A program made the translations under genes and the position numbers. The notes beneath the pieces were generated by a model. It had not been told where the DNA came from and made no database searches. It saw nothing but the letters and a program-made list of their open reading frames with translations. 64,000 nt of DNA from a bacterium (lineage in GTDB: Bacteria; Patescibacteriota; Minisyncoccia; UBA6257; HR35), in the NCBI GenBank assembly GCA_041640295.1, contig JBEQAR010000002.1:38101-102100 (forward strand), written 5' to 3'. Shown here piece after piece: positions 1,388 to 37,393 of the stretch (positions are counted from its first letter, which is position 1; the number at the start of each line of letters is the position of its first letter).

Positions 1388-2392
1388 TTATTTAAAATAA
1401 GATTTACGAATTTCATTCCAAATCTCATTACTTATTTTTACTTCTTTTTTTAAAAACTCTCTAGCGCTTTGAAAACTACTACCCAATTTTAAATCATTAA
1501 AAAATAAACTTGTTCCTGTTTTTTTAATTACACCCAATTTCTCTCCTAAATTTAATAAATCAGCTTCGTAGGAAATACCATCACCGTAATAAATTTCAAT
1601 TTCCGCTGTTTTAAATGGTGGAGCAACTTTATTTTTTACTACCCTAGCTTTAACTTTAATACCAATAATTTCATCGCCCCTTTTTATTTGACCAATTTTT
1701 TTAAGTTCTATTCTTACTGAAGCATAAAATTTTAATGCTTTTCCACCTGGAGTTGTTTCTTGGGCGCCAATCATTGCTCCTATTTGCGCTCTTGTTTGGT
1801 TTAAAAAAATTAATATCGTTTTTGTTTTTGAAATCAAAGCTGTTAATTTCCTTAAAGCTTGTGATATTAGCCTTGCTTGAAGTCCGATAAAATGATCACC
1901 AATCTCGCCCTCTAATTCAGCCTTAGGTGCTAAAGCAGCTACTGAATCAACAACAATTACATCAAATAAGCCAGACTTGACTAATCTTTCAACTAAATTT
2001 AAAGCATCTTCGCCAGAATCTGGTTGAGAAATAATTATTTTTTTAATATCAACGCCAATTCTTTTAGCGTATTCAGGATCAAGCGCATGTTCAGCATCGA
2101 TAAATGCCACATTTCCTCCCCTTTTTTGAGCTTCAGCAATTGTTTCTAAAGCTAAAGTAGATTTACCACTTGATTCTGGACCAAAAATTTCTATTATTCT
2201 TCCTCTGGGTAAACCACCAACTCCTAAAGCTAAGTCTAATGATGGTGAACCAGTTGAAATTACTTCAACATTAACTTTAGGAACAGACTCTAATGTCATT
2301 ACAGTTCCTTCACCAAATTCTTTTTGTAATTCTTGGAGTAAACTTTCTAAATTTTCTTTTCTATTTTCTTTTTCTGCTTTCTTTTTGTTCAT
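1388..2392 (-). CDS. recA: Recombinase RecA
   Basis: The protein is 334 aa. It has the Walker A sequence GPESSGKST and the RecA core motifs AFIDAEHALD and VVDSVAAL. It is colinear with RecA over its full length. Confidence 0.95.
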   Translation of the reverse strand: MNKKKAEKENRKENLESLLQELQKEFGEGTVMTLESVPKVNVEVISTGSPSLDLALGVGGLPRGRIIEIFGPESSGKSTLALETIAEAQKRGGNVAFIDAEHALDPEYAKRIGVDIKKIIISQPDSGEDALNLVERLVKSGLFDVIVVDSVAALAPKAELEGEIGDHFIGLQARLISQALRKLTALISKTKTILIFLNQTRAQIGAMIGAQETTPGGKALKFYASVRIELKKIGQIKRGDEIIGIKVKARVVKNKVAPPFKTAEIEIYYGDGISYEADLLNLGEKLGVIKKTGTSLFFNDLKLGSSFQSAREFLKKEVKISNEIWNEIRKSYFK

Positions 2393-3209: not shown

Positions 3210-3324
3210 GCTTTGCGGTACCTACTCTCGCGCCTTATCGGCACTACCATCGGCGCTAAGCCGTTTCACCTGCTTGTTCGGAATGGGTAAGGGTGTTTCC
3301 AGCTTAGCTATGCAACCACAAAGC
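3210..3324 (-). rRNA. rrf: 5S ribosomal RNA. It is an orphan, with no 23S gene adjacent.
   Basis: A GC-rich island sits in AT-rich DNA. Its reverse complement reads GCUUUGUGGUUGCAUAGCUAAGCUGGAAACACCCUUACCCAUUCCGAACAAGCAGGUGAAACGGCUUAGCGCCGAUGGUAGUGCCGAUAAGGCGCGAGAGUAGGUACCGCAAAGC. This contains the conserved 5S blocks CCGAAC, GUGAAAC, AGCGCCGAUGGUAGUG and GCGAGAGUAGG. The 5' and 3' ends pair over 10 bp to form helix I. Confidence 0.85.
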
Positions 3325-4651: not shown

Positions 4652-5587
4652 TTAAACTTTTTTCCAAGAAGTTGTTACTCCCCAAATTCCATCTTCGTAT
4701 TGAACTATTTGATAATCTTGAAACAAAATTGGTTCAACTAATGCTAAACAAAGAAAAATTCTAAAAAATAATTCCCTTATTTCTGTTTCTGCATAATTAT
4801 TAGCCCTCATTTCAATAGTATGTCGCCAGGCACGAATATTGGCAGTTACTACAATTGGTGCTTCGGTTTCGTTAGTAAATAAACTGCGCGCCGTTTGATT
4901 AATTTTTTTTCTTAATTCTGTTTGTAAATGTTTATCATCATCTTTTGTCGAAGGATTTAAAATTTTCAACTCCTCTCTTTTTTCTTGTAAAAGATCATAA
5001 AGTTTTTGGTATTCGTTTTTAATCCGATCAATTCTTTCTTCAAATAATCGGTGTAAATTTTCATCTTTTTGAAATTCAGGTCTTTCAACAAATCTAATTA
5101 ATTTACCAGAAACATATCTTTGACTTTGCTGAGAATAAGCAAAGCCAGCGCGATGCCTAACTAATTCATGCGTTAAACTTCTTGAAACTCCATAAAGCAA
5201 AAAAGTATAATAACTATGCTCTAAAACTGAGCCATGACCAGAAGACATAATGTTTTCAAAATATTTATCAGCATCTTTATTCCAAGTTCTTTTAGGGCCA
5301 AAAGACATATAACAAAGTTGTGCGGAAAATTTAATTAATTGCGTGCCATTAGTTAATTGATCAGGATCATTTAAATAATTTTCAAATTCATTTTGATAAC
5401 CAGCTAAAAATTCTTTAACATTTTCTAATTTGATTTCAGGCTTAGCAATCATTATTACTCCAGGTTGCTTTAAGTAAGGAGTACCATTTTGAGTAAAATA
5501 AACTTTTGAATTAATAACTGGAAAACCATCAATCAATTTTCCACCCAATGATTCAAATAAATTTTTAATTTGCGTTTTCGTGTTCAT
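4652..5587 (-). CDS. thyX: FAD-dependent thymidylate synthase ThyX, with an N-terminal extension
   Basis: It has the ThyX signature HELVRHRAGFAYSQQSQRY (the RHR...S and SQRY motifs). At 311 aa it is longer than typical ThyX proteins. Confidence 0.8.
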   Translation of the reverse strand: MNTKTQIKNLFESLGGKLIDGFPVINSKVYFTQNGTPYLKQPGVIMIAKPEIKLENVKEFLAGYQNEFENYLNDPDQLTNGTQLIKFSAQLCYMSFGPKRTWNKDADKYFENIMSSGHGSVLEHSYYTFLLYGVSRSLTHELVRHRAGFAYSQQSQRYVSGKLIRFVERPEFQKDENLHRLFEERIDRIKNEYQKLYDLLQEKREELKILNPSTKDDDKHLQTELRKKINQTARSLFTNETEAPIVVTANIRAWRHTIEMRANNYAETEIRELFFRIFLCLALVEPILFQDYQIVQYEDGIWGVTTSWKKV

Positions 5588-5693
5588 TTTATTAACTTCT
5601 TTTCAATTATAATCTTATTGCTTATAATTTAAATCTTAAAATAGAAAATTAAAATATACAAATTTTAAAATTTTAATATTCAAATTTTAAACA

Positions 5694-6254
5694 ATGAATA
5701 ATTTTAGAGAAAAAGCTTTACAACTTATTGATCAATATATCAATAACGAAAATTTAAAAAAACATCTTTTAGCAACTGAAGCCTTGATGAAAGCTTTAGC
5801 AAAAAAATTTAATCAGGATGAAATACTTTGGGGTTTAGCTGGTTTACTTCATGATTTAGATTGGGAAATAACCAAAGAAACCCCAGAAAAACATCCATTT
5901 GTAGCTGTTGAAATTTTGGAAAGAGAGAAATTTCCTGAAGAAATTATTTCTGCTATTAAAAAACATAATCATATTCACAATTTAGTACCAGAAACATTAC
6001 TTGAAAAAGCTCTTTATTGTTGCGAAGAAATAACAGGTTTAATTGTTGCTGTTGCTTTGGTAATGCCCAATAAAAAATTATCTGAAGTAACTGTTGATAA
6101 AATAATGTCAAAATTTAAAGAGAATTCCTTTGCTCGAGGGGTTAATCGTGAAATAATAAAACAATGTCAACCTATGTTAGGAATTACTGTTGAAGAATTA
6201 AGCCAAATAGCCCTATCTGCAATGCAATCAATAAGCGATCAATTAGGCTTATAA
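5694..6254 (+). CDS. HD-domain phosphohydrolase
   Basis: The protein is 186 aa. It has a His/Asp metal-binding pattern with H...LHDLDWE and a later KHNHIHN. Confidence 0.6.
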   Translation: MNNFREKALQLIDQYINNENLKKHLLATEALMKALAKKFNQDEILWGLAGLLHDLDWEITKETPEKHPFVAVEILEREKFPEEIISAIKKHNHIHNLVPETLLEKALYCCEEITGLIVAVALVMPNKKLSEVTVDKIMSKFKENSFARGVNREIIKQCQPMLGITVEELSQIALSAMQSISDQLGL

Positions 6255-6341
6255 GTTATCCACAAATTTTTATGTTGACTAAAATTAAATTTATTATTAA
6301 AATTTTACTAATTAAATCAAAACCAAATTAATTAAGCAAAT

Positions 6342-8129
6342 ATGAGCAAAATAAGAATATCTACAATTTATCCGGTTTTATTATTATTTACTTTTTTAAT
6401 ATTATCTAATTCCCTACAAGCTCAAACTATTCCTATGTGCTCTGCTCCCCAAAATTTACTTATTTGGCCTAATATGGCAACAAACACTATACCAGTGGCA
6501 TTAAGTTCTGGTGTTTTAACTAATTCACCAATTACTTATGCGTCTACAACTATTTTTTATGCGGGACAAAGAAGAGATACGGCCGAATTGATTAGAATTG
6601 GAAATTCTGTAAATATATGGAGTAGTAAAGCTACATCGAGAGGAAATAATTGGAGTAATTGGTTAAGGGTAAACTGGGGAGGGATAACTGTGAATGGTCC
6701 CAGAAGAAACTATCATAGTGGTGGTTCAATAACTTTTTTAGATGATTCAACTAGTACTGATAAGTTATTCTTAAATTATTTTACTATTGCTAATCATCCA
6801 TCGTATATGTATTGGCAAACAGAACTTGGAAATCAAAATGTTCCAATAGATGAACCATTATTCCATAATCCAATGAGTTCCGAATATGGTAACTTAAGAT
6901 TCTTCTACTCTGAATACAATCCTACAAATGAATCTATCAGGGGAAGGTTAGGAAGAGATATCCCGCCAGGAAATTATATATATAAAAATTTAATGACACT
7001 AACTTGGGATGGAAGGTTGCTTATTGGAACAACAACCAGAATTGGTTCTACAGGTAGTAATTTGGGAGTTAAAATAGAAGCAGATGATACAAGCAGATTT
7101 GCTGATCATATTAAAATTAACGCAGATATACCTTCTAATGCCACTAATCCCTGGTTTGGTTTTTCTGGTTCAGGATTGGGTCATCATCGAGGAGGTATAG
7201 CATTTAAAAATACAGGTGGTCGCAATGATCCAAGGGGAGATGTAGTTATTTGGGCAAGAAAGGGTGGCAATATAATATTAAATCCAGGAAATTCAATAGG
7301 TTCACAATTAACAACAGAATCAAATGGTAATGTGGGCATAGGAACAGATAATCCAACTGAAAAATTAGAAGTAGTTGGAAATATCAAAGCTAGTGGTTTT
7401 TGTCTTGGTAATGATTGTCGAACTACTTGGTCAGGTGCAGGTACATCTTATTGGATATTATCATTATCAGGAATAAATCTATATGCTACTCCAACTAATG
7501 TTAGAGTAGGTATTGGAACAACTAATCCAACAGAAAGATTGCATGTTATAGGAAATATTAAAGCAACAGGGACAATTTCAGCTGATACAATGCTATCTAG
7601 CGGCGGAAGCCTTAGAGTAAATTATGGTGCTAACCTAGCAATAAATGGAGGCAATGTGGGTATCGGTACCACTAACCCCCAAGCTAAATTACATGTTATA
7701 GGAGATATTAAATCTTCAGCAACAATCACTGCTCCGGTATTTTGTATAGGAAATAGCTGTCGTTCATCTTGGCCAGTTGGTGGCGGAGGAAGTATTAATG
7801 GTACAGCAAATTATATTGCTAAGTTTGCTAATAACAGTACTGTTATTAACTCTCAAATATTTGATAATGGAACCAATGTCGGCATCGGAACAACTAATCC
7901 AAGTGCTAAATTAGATGTTAATGGAGCAATAGCTGTTAAGAATGGTATTTATTTTTATGATAGTGGAATTAAAACTATTAATAGTGGATATGAAAATAGC
8001 AATATTTCTATTCAGGTCTCAAGCATAGAAAAAATTAACATTTCAAGAAATTATTTAGATTTAAAAGGAGAAACTAGAATTTATTCTTCTGATGGTTCAA
8101 GATTAATTTTAGGTATTAGCGAAGAATAA
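6342..8129 (+). CDS. Secreted protein with four tandem repeats resembling tail-fibre or collar repeats
   Basis: The signal peptide is MSKIRISTIYPVLLLFTFLILSNSLQAQ. Four repeats of about 45 aa share the consensus NVGIGT(T/D)NP-x-x-KL-x-V-x-G-x-IKA. They begin near nt 7323, 7497, 7650 and 7869. Two of them are followed by a disulfide-like C-x-G-N-x-C motif. Confidence 0.6.
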   Translation: MSKIRISTIYPVLLLFTFLILSNSLQAQTIPMCSAPQNLLIWPNMATNTIPVALSSGVLTNSPITYASTTIFYAGQRRDTAELIRIGNSVNIWSSKATSRGNNWSNWLRVNWGGITVNGPRRNYHSGGSITFLDDSTSTDKLFLNYFTIANHPSYMYWQTELGNQNVPIDEPLFHNPMSSEYGNLRFFYSEYNPTNESIRGRLGRDIPPGNYIYKNLMTLTWDGRLLIGTTTRIGSTGSNLGVKIEADDTSRFADHIKINADIPSNATNPWFGFSGSGLGHHRGGIAFKNTGGRNDPRGDVVIWARKGGNIILNPGNSIGSQLTTESNGNVGIGTDNPTEKLEVVGNIKASGFCLGNDCRTTWSGAGTSYWILSLSGINLYATPTNVRVGIGTTNPTERLHVIGNIKATGTISADTMLSSGGSLRVNYGANLAINGGNVGIGTTNPQAKLHVIGDIKSSATITAPVFCIGNSCRSSWPVGGGGSINGTANYIAKFANNSTVINSQIFDNGTNVGIGTTNPSAKLDVNGAIAVKNGIYFYDSGIKTINSGYENSNISIQVSSIEKINISRNYLDLKGETRIYSSDGSRLILGISEE

Positions 8130-8830
8130 TGTTTAAAAAAATTAGTGATATTATTTTTGAAAAAAGATTAGTAATTTTAGTGTTATGCTTAATGATTTCT
8201 TTATTATTATTCTTTTCTGCTTATAGCCAAGGACAAACGAGATTTACTGTTTTTAAGACAGATAATCGAGGGTTTAAGTTTATATTTAAAAACAACACAG
8301 TTTATACTCCAGCCTTATATGTAGCTGATATTGGATTAGGAACCTTTTTTAAGGTGCCAGGTTATTTATATATTCAAGAAATAGGCATAAACAACAGAAA
8401 CTCAAGCCAGGTAAGATGCGAATGTGATATAACCGATACAAATGTTGATTGCCCGGCTTATTATTATACTATTAATAACATGGGGCCAGTATGTTATGAT
8501 TGGTATAGAAGAGAAATAGCACAAGATCCGGTAGCCGCTAAATTTAATAAATATAACCAAAATGAGGGATTCTATGGAAGTTTTTTAAGGGTAGGTTGGG
8601 ATGGGAAGGTTGGTATATTGGGTGATTTGATAGTTGAAAAGAATGAAAACAATGATTGCGTTTGGATCCCAGGACCTGAAGAAAACAATTATAGAGATAT
8701 AGATGTAGTAAGCGGTGTAGCAGAAACAATATGTCCGTCAGGTTATTTTATGAAGGGAATTAGATTTAGGGGTTCATCGCGAGATGTTAACTCATTGGAT
8801 ATGTGGAGTATTCAGTGTTGTAAATTGTAA
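8129..8830 (+). CDS. Cys-rich secreted or membrane-anchored protein, translationally coupled to the upstream repeat protein
   Basis: The upstream stop and this start overlap as TAATG at 8127-8131. There is an N-terminal hydrophobic anchor, and 11 Cys residues include CECD, a DCPAYYY motif and a C-terminal QCCKL. Confidence 0.5.
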   Translation: MFKKISDIIFEKRLVILVLCLMISLLLFFSAYSQGQTRFTVFKTDNRGFKFIFKNNTVYTPALYVADIGLGTFFKVPGYLYIQEIGINNRNSSQVRCECDITDTNVDCPAYYYTINNMGPVCYDWYRREIAQDPVAAKFNKYNQNEGFYGSFLRVGWDGKVGILGDLIVEKNENNDCVWIPGPEENNYRDIDVVSGVAETICPSGYFMKGIRFRGSSRDVNSLDMWSIQCCKL

Positions 8831-8891
8831 ATTATTCTAAAAATAATTTAAAATTTTTTTAACTATAATTAACTCTAAATATAAATAAAAC

Positions 8892-9380
8892 CTGTTCGAT
8901 CCTAAATTAAATAAGTTAAAATTAAACAAAGTTAGGTTAATTGATGAAAGTGGAAAACAAATAGGTATTTTAGATTTTAGTGAAGCAAAAAAAATTGCTG
9001 AAGAAAAAAATACCGGACTTATTTTAGTTTCAGAAAAAGCTGATCCACCTGTTTTGAAATTAGGCGATTATTTTAAATATATTTATAATTTAAAAAAAAG
9101 ACAAAAAGATAAAGATATTTCCGAAATTAAAGAAATCAGAATTAGTTTTCAGGAGGCTGAGGGTGATTTAAGAAGAAAAGCAAAACAAGCTGAAGAGTTT
9201 TTACAAGAAGGCGATCAAGTAAGAATTAGAATGATGTTAAAAGGTAGGCAAATGTTACACCTTAATTTAGCTGAAGAAAAAATGAATCAATTTATTAGTT
9301 TTATCGAAATACCGATTAAAATTATTTCTACGATTAAAAAAACTGGCAATAATTTATTCGTTATTATTAGTAAAAAATGA
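8892..9380 (+). CDS. infC: Translation initiation factor IF-3. It must use a non-AUG start. The CTG at 8892 is the best in-frame candidate, and the TTG at 9054 used by the ORF track lies inside the gene.
   Basis: The frame is open from the stop at 8886 and encodes ...KVRLIDESGKQIGILDFSEAKKIAEEKNTGLILVSEKADPPVLKLGDY.... This is colinear with the IF3 N-terminal domain and linker, and the C-terminal domain follows. No ATG, GTG or TTG occurs in frame between 8889 and 8940. Confidence 0.8.
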   Translation: MFDPKLNKLKLNKVRLIDESGKQIGILDFSEAKKIAEEKNTGLILVSEKADPPVLKLGDYFKYIYNLKKRQKDKDISEIKEIRISFQEAEGDLRRKAKQAEEFLQEGDQVRIRMMLKGRQMLHLNLAEEKMNQFISFIEIPIKIISTIKKTGNNLFVIISKK

Positions 9381-9556
9381 AAAAGAGAGATGCGCTTTTA
9401 AAAAGAATAAAAATAACTAAGAAAGGAAAGATCTTAAGAAGAGTTAGTGGACTTTCTCATTTTTTAGCTAAAAAATCATCAAAAAAAATTAGAAAGAAAA
9501 GAAAATTAAAAGAAACTAAAGATTTATATTTAAGATATCTTGAATATACAAATTAA
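9377..9556 (+). CDS. rpmI: 50S ribosomal protein L35
   Basis: The 59-aa basic protein MKKRDALLKRIKITKKGKILRRVSGLSHFLAKKSSKKIRKKRKL is L35-like. Its ATG overlaps the infC stop, which matches the canonical infC-rpmI order. It is missing from the ORF track because it is below the length cut-off. Confidence 0.75.
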   Translation: MKKRDALLKRIKITKKGKILRRVSGLSHFLAKKSSKKIRKKRKLKETKDLYLRYLEYTN

Positions 9557-9568
9557 AATAACCCTAAA

Positions 9569-10126
9569 ATGGAAAAAAAATTAAAAATAGTAATTTCCGG
9601 AGCAGCTGAAACCTCTCATTGCTCTGAAAAAGTTAATGAATTTGCTTATGAAATCGGTAAATATTTGGCAATGAACGATGTGATTACTATTACTGGGGCA
9701 ACAACTGGATCACCTTTTTGGGCAGCTAAGGGAGCATTTGAAAATGGCGGATATGTAATTGGTGTCTCTCCAGCAATAGATGAAAAAGAACATATAGAAG
9801 TCTATAATTTGCCAACAGATTATCATCATTTAATTTTTTATACTGGTTTTGGCCATTCTCTAAGAAATTTAATTTTGGTTAGATCTGGTGATGGAGTAAT
9901 ATTTGTTTGTGGTAGAACCGGAACACTGAATGAGTTTGTTATTTCTTATGAAGAAAAAAAACCAATGGGTATTTTATTAAATTCTGGTGGAGAGGAAAAA
10001 TATATGGCAGAGATTGTTAAAGAATCTCATAAAGAGCATAACAAAATAATTTGGGAATCAGATCCTCAAAAATTAGTTGAGAAAATTATTAATTTAATTA
10101 AAAATGAGCGATATTCCAATAATTGA
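9569..10126 (+). CDS. LOG/TIGR00725-family Rossmann-fold protein (lysine-decarboxylase-like)
   Basis: The protein is 185 aa. Its motifs VISGAAE, ITGATTGSPFWAAKGA and CGRTGTLNEF match the LOG-family GGxGxM and PGGxGTxEE patterns. It sits where rplT would normally be. Confidence 0.6.
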   Translation: MEKKLKIVISGAAETSHCSEKVNEFAYEIGKYLAMNDVITITGATTGSPFWAAKGAFENGGYVIGVSPAIDEKEHIEVYNLPTDYHHLIFYTGFGHSLRNLILVRSGDGVIFVCGRTGTLNEFVISYEEKKPMGILLNSGGEEKYMAEIVKESHKEHNKIIWESDPQKLVEKIINLIKNERYSNN

Positions 10127-35739: not shown

Positions 35740-37256
<1,517 letters not shown>

Positions 37257-37393
37257 AAACCTAACCAGGATAATTAAAAACCTTTTTAATATAAATTTTA
37301 GTGTACAATAAAATCATCAAATCAAAAACAATCTTAATAATTTACTCAACCAACATTTATAATTCAATTCCACAATTTAGAAAGATAAGTATT

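Follow-up and report, generated by a model that had tools for sequence, protein, structure and literature searches.

Gene A and gene B are two adjoining genes in a 64,000-nucleotide stretch of contig JBEQAR010000002.1 (hereafter the window, to whose numbering all coordinates refer unless a locus is named). Gene A (6342..8129) encodes a secreted fibre protein, or shaft, of 595 amino acids (aa), as indicated by matches to PHROG families and to PDB entry 8OND and by a family alignment. Gene B (8129..8830) encodes a 233-aa protein, a putative secreted tip cassette that is translationally coupled to A. Both come from a list of open reading frames (ORFs) and lie, like all features of the pair given below, on the forward strand. 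The reading that we favour, with a confidence slightly above even, is that A is a surface fibre similar to the MAT (mosaic adhesive trimer) fibres of Bdellovibrio bacteriovorus, whose binding tip is encoded separately and swapped by recombination. The window has a G+C content of about 27% and carries a bacterial 16S gene, and the named assemblies most closely related to it are KatS3mg095 and KatS3mg094, both labelled 'Candidatus Parcubacteria bacterium'.

Four copies of the motif [NR]VGIGTxNPxxxLxVxGxI are present in A, starting at aa 330, 388, 438 and 512. Copy 1, NVGIGTDNPTEKLEVVGNI (aa 330-348, 7329..7385), aligns to GNLGLGTAAPTSALHV of the Bdellovibrio protein Bd2133; copy 2 is RVGIGTTNPTERLHVIGNI (aa 388-406, 7503..7559); copy 3, NVGIGTTNPQAKLHVIGDI (aa 438-456, 7653..7709), is also aligned to Bd2133; and copy 4, NVGIGTTNPSAKLDVNGAI (aa 512-530, 7875..7931), aligns to NVGIGATAPTAKLEVAGTI of the same protein. 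In the DNA these copies are direct repeats of 61-78 nucleotides (nt) at 7332, 7506, 7656 and 7866, with 65-77% identity. A preliminary description of this DNA had counted four tandem repeats of about 45 aa; the number stands, while the start-to-start spacing of 58, 50 and 74 aa means that the repeat is a conserved motif of about 19-25 aa with variable spacers and not a strict tandem repeat. The C-x-G-N-x-C motifs that it had assigned to two of the repeats were found again as FCLGNDC (aa 353-359) and FCIGNSC (aa 467-473), which come after copies 1 and 3, respectively. The first Cys loop, CLGNDC, occupies aa 354-359 (7401..7418) and the second, CIGNSC, aa 468-473 (7743..7760); C354, N357 and C359 are invariant or nearly so in the family alignment.

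The PHROG tail-fibre and tail families match A with E values from 7e-16 to 1e-6, in every case by way of the repeat region, and 1727 database proteins match this region at E<=1e-3, which together place the repeats far beyond chance. These proteins belong to Patescibacteria, DPANN archaea, Cytophagales and others, and some of the distant ones carry Peptidase_S74. Comparison of A with PDB sequences by phmmer gave a sole significant match, to the MAT fibre Bd2133 (8OND_A, E=1.4e-5, aa 320-559), with three motifs in register, and a weak further match to the stalk of MyRF. In MAT fibres the motif V-G-G/N-pi-x-x-P-x-x-x-L builds capping loops that are found at the edges of an intertwined trimeric beta-helix, and the same motif has been noted in S74 phage fibres and in MyRF (PMC10769870). 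Because Bd2133 aligns with the motif copies in register, the repeat of A can be named: it is the capping-loop motif of trimeric beta-helical fibres, and A is a member of this broad fibre superfamily. The likeness to phage tail fibres and adhesins noted at the outset is therefore true homology, as the PHROG, 8OND and Thermus phage matches indicate, and the accompanying remark that nothing nameable was clearly homologous has to be withdrawn. Phage genomes gave just two weak matches to A, both of them Thermus phage fibre proteins with 28-30% identity. No match for A was found in Pfam or NCBIfam, and PF13884 (Peptidase_S74, the C-terminal domain with the catalytic SDxxxK) did not match A or B at E<=1. 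The better repeat-region matches also include proteins of DPANN archaea (Woesearchaeota and Aenigmatarchaeota; P0018, P0019 and P0082), so that capping-loop fibre proteins occur in both groups of ultrasmall, putatively episymbiotic prokaryotes.

End-to-end matches to A are limited to about a dozen proteins. Alignments of this family (A2 and A3) show conserved ends and a variable middle, and the total length ranges from 388 to 863 aa because the number of fibre modules varies, from two to about nine. All members begin with a hydrophobic N-terminus followed by [A/S/G]|Q, a layout shared by 12 relatives. In A itself, MSKIRIS is followed by a 14-aa hydrophobic core and SNSLQA|Q, which was recognised as a Sec-type signal by eye and by a hydropathy scan, in agreement with the signal peptide reported initially; the predicted signal peptide covers aa 1-27 (6342..6422), with cleavage at LQA|Q. 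Directly after it stands a conserved, strand-rich, family-specific N-terminal domain of about 200 aa (aa 28-228, 6423..7025), delimited by invariant alignment columns and 38-40% identical to its orthologues in KatS3mg095 and KatS3mg094. It contains the invariant sequence IP(M/I)C-x-(A/S)P-x-x-L-x-x-WP, with a single unpaired Cys33, as well as GPR..-S-GG..F-D-S. Lipoprotein anchoring through Cys33 was considered and ruled out, since T-I-P-M-C is no lipobox and the Cys lies 6-8 residues past the predicted signal peptidase I site. No relative of the N-terminal domain is present in Pfam, NCBIfam or the PDB, where a profile search returned noise (E>0.2).

A variable insert (aa 229-329, 7026..7328; columns 260-390 of alignment A2) leads from the N-terminal domain to the first motif; it is missing from most relatives, and corresponding inserts are present in P0004 and P0008. 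At the very C-terminus A carries the tail YSSDGSRLILGISEE (aa 581-595, 8082..8126), which is conserved in the 12 family members with the nearly invariant consensus YSSDGSRLLxEIxEE. Y581, G585, R587, E594 and E595 are invariant and S582, S583, D584, L588 and I592 nearly so, and the tail is kept though the central regions of the 12 members vary by hundreds of residues. A scan of GTDB representative genomes with a narrower N-domain alignment recovered only KatS3mg094; the first metagenome scan found nothing, and a scan with the cassette head described below added one more locus, L013. The family looks rare, as seen with back-translated scan patterns that are narrow.

The stop codon of A (TAA, 8127-8129) ends on the first base of the start codon of B (ATG, 8129-8131), so that the two genes overlap by one base (TAATG) in the junction sequence GAAGAATAATGTTTA; the two ORFs and their stop/start overlap had been described correctly. 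The N-terminus of B is strongly hydrophobic, with a mean Kyte-Doolittle value of 2.8 over 19 aa from residue 14. It is annotated as a signal peptide or N-terminal hydrophobic helix (aa 1-33, 8129..8227; predicted cleavage AYS|Q) from its hydropathy and from an AlphaFold2 (AF2) helix at aa 2-33. The [S/A]|Q site is conserved in 12 of 12 cassette proteins. Because this site comes after the hydrophobic stretch, as it does in A, a cleaved signal peptide is more likely than a permanent anchor, and the signal peptides of both A and B would then be cleaved. B had been introduced as a Cys-rich anchored partner; with nine Cys it is certainly Cys-rich, whereas the anchoring gives way to a signal peptide that is more probably removed.

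C97, C99, C108, C122, C177, C202, C230 and C231 of B are invariant in its three homologues, which were all that a word-index search with B returned. No family in Pfam, PHROG or NCBIfam and no PDB sequence matched B, a PDB profile search gave noise (E>0.2), and no match was found in 50,697 phage genomes. Foldseek, suggested earlier, placed the Mu fibre-chaperone complex only at E=5.5. An hmmsearch profile search of 1.8 billion representative proteins gave 57 matches, and these divide B into three parts. The first (residues 1-58) comprises the signal peptide and a constant head, QGQTRFTVFKTDNRGFKFIFKNN (aa 34-56, 8228..8296), with the consensus SQGQ-R[FY]TVFKT-N-GF[KR]F, which is common to all cassette proteins and recurs at the N-terminus of otherwise unrelated proteins; Q34, G35, R38, T40, F42, T44, N46, F49 and F51 are invariant across 7 heads. 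The second is a four-Cys module, VRCECD...DCP...G..CYDWY (aa 76-145, 8354..8563), modelled by AF2 with a predicted local distance difference test (pLDDT) score of 86-96. By a regular-expression count its pattern, (P)RCxCD...DC...G..CYD, occurs in 42 copies in 36 of the 57 matches, and 15 copies stand 30-44 aa past a fibre motif within long multi-motif fibre proteins. The third is a four-Cys C-terminal tip domain (aa 163-233, 8615..8827; AF2 pLDDT 80-89 for aa 175-233) with the motif GDLxVxxNxxNxCxW...CPxGYFMxGIxF...LDMWxIxCCxL (CPxGYFMKGIxFRG and CCKL in B). This motif ends 2-3 residues before the C-terminus in all 13 proteins that have it, among them the long fibre proteins P0142, P0146 and P0148 and the YadA-repeat protein P0137, which joins weak YadA-head repeats to the tip domain of B.

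Since the Cys module sits inside fibre proteins elsewhere and the tip motif ends them, B is, as far as these comparisons go, an assembly of fibre parts, built from pieces found elsewhere within a fibre polypeptide and notably at its distal end. A degenerate, shortened fibre motif (ADIGLGTFFKVPGYLY) was seen just N-terminal of the Cys module, at aa 60-75 (8306-8353), and P0129, a related head-bearing protein, has a full fibre motif (GNIGIGTKNPEGKLDI) in the same place; B may be derived from a short fibre segment. Downstream of P0129, at positions 1762-2179 (+) of its locus L011, are overlapping 66- and 74-aa ORFs that are toxin-antitoxin-like by arrangement and sequence style only. The modules are reused on other surface scaffolds, as seen from the architectures of P0127 (480 aa), with three tandem copies of the tip motif after a very Cys-rich region, and P0140 (255 aa), in which a type IV pilin-like N-terminus (GFTLVELLV) is joined to the four-Cys module. 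A VMO-I-like beta-prism reading of the tip, prompted by the pattern CPxG...G...F...LD.W.I.C, was dropped, as Pfam, the PDB and Foldseek gave it no support.

All the long related contigs have the gene order RecA-SSB-S6-RNaseH-Nth-(64 aa)-ThyX, with the fibre gene next. The order ThyX-HD-A-B-IF3 is shared by the window, KatS3mg095 (L003) and KatS3mg094 (L010). In a fourth lineage, known from a metagenome (L006), the A tail is directly followed by a B homologue, the N-terminal part of the fibre gene being off the contig, and in a second group (L001, L002, L008, L009 and L013) one or two genes separate the fibre gene from leuS downstream. An N-domain motif, a tail (YSxDGxRLxxEIxEE) and an adjoining head gene within 5 nt, which we take as the provisional definition of a ThyX-linked fibre/tip-cassette family, were found together in the window and in L001, L002, L003, L008, L009, L010 and L013; within the 64 kb of the window, A and B are the only ORFs with the three family motifs. 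The cassette starts between -4 and +5 nt from the fibre stop in 9 of 9 loci and always has the same head. The pair is thus linked and coupled in KatS3mg095, KatS3mg094 and one further metagenome lineage, which answers the question of conservation in close relatives raised by the preliminary description. On its companion question of variation between strains the answer is twofold, for the linkage is conserved and the cassettes and the fibre length are variable. The HD-domain gene between thyX and the fibre gene (5694-6254, +) is present in the window and both KatS3 genomes and not in the second group. The downstream boundary of the fibre locus also differs (infC or leuS), so that only the thyX side is fixed across lineages.

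The 12 cassette proteins from the 9 loci align only over their first 58 residues or so unless they are of the same class, and beyond these at least five unrelated classes of C-terminal domain can be told apart. These are a Cys module with a CCxL tip (B and its homologues), a CCxL tip alone (cassette 1 of L013), a Cys-rich domain of 180-199 aa with a fibre motif in it, an unmatched domain of 369-383 aa, and a fibre segment that has a genuine Peptidase_S74 domain at its end (L002, E = 4.5e-19). By this comparison B is more than a partner rich in Cys, being a member of a set of interchangeable cassettes. L001, L002, L008 and L009, three of which come from one sample, have flanks that are 96-99% identical; what sets them apart is that fibre modules have been inserted or deleted and that cassettes are present, absent or replaced. 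The fibre gene of L001 contains 300-nt repeats that are 97% identical. Before its second cassette, L001 repeats the final 30 nt of the fibre gene, which run from the SRL codons to TAA, together with an A-rich spacer, the junction repeat being 217 nt long and 95% identical, and L013 has the same arrangement. Because the fibre 3' end and the spacer recur before second cassettes, the moving unit includes the junction of fibre tail and cassette head. At the level of strains, the locus is a hotspot of recombination.

Between the window and the two KatS3 genomes, flanking proteins are 71-81% identical (58% for the downstream permease), as against 34-35% for A and 37-46% for B, and at the nucleotide level nothing matches the A/B region. 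The locus changes at about double the rate of its neighbours, which are housekeeping genes, so that its context is cellular and not viral. Variation of the diversity-generating retroelement type was rejected, as no reverse transcriptase or template repeat lies near the locus and a neighbour labelled RVT_3 is RNase H.

The mechanism that we propose starts from A as a Sec-exported, trimeric, beta-helical capping-loop fibre of a Parcubacteria-type (Patescibacteria) bacterium. Its N-terminal domain of about 200 aa would, by analogy with MAT fibres, form the cell-proximal end, to be followed by a stack of fibre modules of variable number and by the 15-aa tail in place of a binding domain. The translationally coupled B would supply the missing end in trans once its signal peptide has been cleaved, with its parts in the order of a constant head, about 20 aa long, then a disulfide-knotted module and last a small disulfide-bonded terminal domain. 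The head would join the tail of A, making B the distal binding tip; this docking step we advance tentatively, giving it somewhat less than an even chance. The constant junction, in which a short spacer links the 3' end of the fibre gene to the 5' end of the cassette, may act as a recombination handle through which whole tip cassettes would be exchanged, duplicated or deleted between strains, and recombination between the DNA repeats inside A could alter the length of the fibre. The purpose of such a device would be to recognise and attach to the cell on which the reduced-genome bacterium depends. We infer the polarity of the fibre, the binding of a ligand and the role in attachment or recognition. 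A recognition module fits a locus that is fast-evolving and variable between strains, and the earlier guess of a surface attachment or recognition module appears reasonable and is better founded now.

MAT fibres (B. bacteriovorus Bd2133, solved as 8OND, and Bd3182; Caulton et al. 2024, PMC10769870) are, along with phage receptor-binding fibres whose ends can be exchanged, the closest known systems. MAT fibres too are cellular fibres with a signal peptide and a repeated capping-loop motif that aligns directly with A, and they combine a family-constant N-terminal domain with a mosaic, swappable distal end. The typical MAT protein, of about 1000 aa, carries its tip or S74 domain in the same polypeptide. 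A has a signal peptide (by heuristic prediction) and capping-loop modules and, unlike MAT proteins, ends in the 15-aa tail YSSDGSRLILGISEE, the tip-type modules being encoded in a separate gene B with its own signal peptide and head. The N-terminal domain of A measures about 200 aa, compared with about 130 aa for the conserved beta-rich domain of MAT proteins. There is one hypervariable site here and there are 21 dispersed paralogues in Bdellovibrio. Bdellovibrio is a Gram-negative predator living on bacteria, whereas Patescibacteria are generally regarded as single-membrane bacteria. These comparisons suggest that the pair is a MAT-type fibre of a Parcubacteria-type bacterium in split form, its tip being encoded by a gene of its own and exchanged as a cassette.

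The S74 phage fibres and spikes (T5 pb1, K1F endosialidase) and the eukaryotic MyRF share the capping-loop motif G-x-V-G-I-x-T-x-x-P-x-x-x-L, and a genuine S74 domain is found in the alternative cassette of L002; in contrast to these proteins, A and B have no S74 domain, are predicted to be Sec-exported and lie among chromosomal housekeeping genes. The phage pairs T4/T2 gp37-gp38, Mu S-U with its Gin-invertible segment, P2 H-G and lambda stf-tfa likewise consist of a fibre gene and a small gene downstream that determines or completes its receptor-binding end, and they have alternative C-terminal cassettes with a constant joint at which recombination creates variation. They differ in that the A/B locus has no invertase or inverted repeats, that the cassettes are whole tandem genes with a start codon and signal peptide, and that B has no sequence similarity to Tfa or gp38. 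YadA trimeric autotransporters are also modular, repetitive and trimeric surface fibres, as A would be if its presumed trimer is correct, and P0137 links the tip domain of B with weak YadA-head repeats. Neither A nor B matches the YadA anchor or head families, however, and a YadA-type anchor would have nothing to insert into, because Patescibacteria are generally regarded as being without an outer membrane. A bolder proposal, which at present we think doubtful, is that the pair forms a two-piece phage-like device in which plug-on tips, swapped at the thyX hotspot on a constant trimeric shaft, set the host cells that can be attached to, and in which both modules of B are previously undescribed folds.

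Several observations weigh against the split-fibre interpretation. The monomer AF2 model of A, made from a 12-sequence alignment, was unusable (pLDDT 30.5) and so leaves the trimeric beta-helix and the N-terminal fold unconfirmed; such a low score is expected of the monomer of an intertwined trimer modelled with a shallow alignment. The cleavage call is heuristic, and an uncleaved helix of B serving as an anchor would change the polarity of the model. More divergent heads occur in P0145, which follows ribosome recycling factor (RRF) and an M50 protease in L012 with no upstream fibre gene, and in P0129 of L011, where no fibre tail is present in the 287 nt upstream. Because head-bearing proteins thus occur away from fibre genes, the head may be a general export or wall-docking signal and no adaptor specific to fibres. 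Variability between strains also fits evasion of phages or predators instead of host recognition.

The main alternative, a rather unlikely one, is that A and B are independent, co-expressed surface proteins that do not dock, each fixed to the envelope by its own conserved N-terminus, and that the variability reflects escape from phages or predators to which they serve as receptors, in the manner of a variable surface coat, and not recognition of a host. The stray heads in L012 and L011 speak for it, and so does the fibre-like stretch of B (DIGLGTFFKVPGYLY), which, although degenerate, may make B a mini-fibre itself; phage pressure, moreover, commonly yields variable surface proteins. Set against this, inspection of the mature A and B sequences revealed no recognisable anchor, that is, no further transmembrane segment, lipobox or LPXTG motif. 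The nearly invariant tail and the constant head adjoin and are coupled, at -4 to +5 nt, in 9 of 9 loci, the fibre 3' end moves with the cassettes, and the tip domain of B covalently ends fibres in other organisms.

The same fusions bear on the idea that B is an assembly chaperone with the role of Tfa, gp38 or gpU and is neither a structural nor a binding part of the fibre. The downstream position and coupling of B do mirror those of phage stf-tfa pairs, and A has no S74 intramolecular chaperone of its own; yet B matches no Tfa family in Pfam or PHROGs, elsewhere both of its modules are fused into fibre proteins, in the interior or at the end, and one alternative cassette is a complete S74-terminated fibre segment and hence a structural part. 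A signal peptide and eight conserved Cys suit an extracellular disulfide-bonded domain, whereas proteins of the Tfa type are cytoplasmic and have no signal peptide, and we consider a chaperone role improbable. That the cassettes are polymorphic effectors or toxins, with constant N-terminal delivery and a variable payload that the fibre presents to neighbouring cells, is a very improbable explanation: the N-terminus is constant, the C-terminus varies and spare cassettes stand in tandem, which is reminiscent of the polymorphic toxin loci CdiA-CT and Rhs, but the gene after the cassettes is infC or leuS and not a small immunity-like gene, Pfam shows no toxin domain, and among the variable domains are fibre motifs, an S74 chaperone and Cys-knotted modules of the binding type. 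An origin as the remnant of a prophage or tailocin tail-fibre module, for which the PHROG tail-fibre matches and the two Thermus phage matches might be cited, is scarcely credible given that a Sec signal peptide, absent from phage fibres, is present on both A and B. Housekeeping genes flank the pair, and their order is kept between lineages whose flanks have drifted apart to about 75% nucleotide identity; B is unmatched in the 50,697 phage genomes, and there is no other phage gene nearby.

A promoter-like sequence, TTGACT-17-TAAAAT (6275..6303, +), is located 39 nt upstream of A and has 10 of 12 matches, although it is weak and lies in AT-rich DNA; with 31 such sites in the region and 22 +/- 5 in shuffles, it is merely suggestive. 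A terminator scan of 5500-9600 found none. Downstream of the pair, the infC gene for IF3 (8886-9380, +) starts in the ORF list with TTG at 9054 and would then encode the C-terminal domain only (108 aa). From about 8886 onwards the frame is open; it also encodes the N-terminal domain (NLFDPKLNKLKLNKVRLIDESGKQIG...) and matches the 162-aa IF3 of KatS3mg095, and infC probably uses a non-ATG start here, as it often does. If it starts at about 8886, the spacer after gene B is only about 60 nt. The 16S rRNA gene (35740-37258, -) and the 5S rRNA gene (3210-3323, -) are about 32 kb apart, and no above-threshold match to 23S rRNA was found anywhere in the 64 kb, so that the rRNA genes of the window are unlinked.

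How ultrasmall Patescibacteria find and hold their hosts is largely unexplained. For Saccharibacteria, type IV pili and unnamed "adhesins" are mainly implicated in host attachment (PMC10633639, PMC12206443, PMC11665869), and in a limited literature collection we found no paper connecting MAT-type or phage-type fibres with Patescibacteria. The A/B locus is a testable candidate for a determinant of host specificity. It has a natural experiment built in, because near-identical strains carry different tip cassettes, and strain-resolved metagenomes would allow correlations to be sought between cassette type and host taxa. Once expressed, the small disulfide-bonded tip domains might in turn serve as probes for the hosts of uncultivated lineages. 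If the split-fibre interpretation is right, the fibre principle of Bdellovibrio would extend to a group that is very different and is believed to be dependent on other cells, in a version in which shaft and tip are split.

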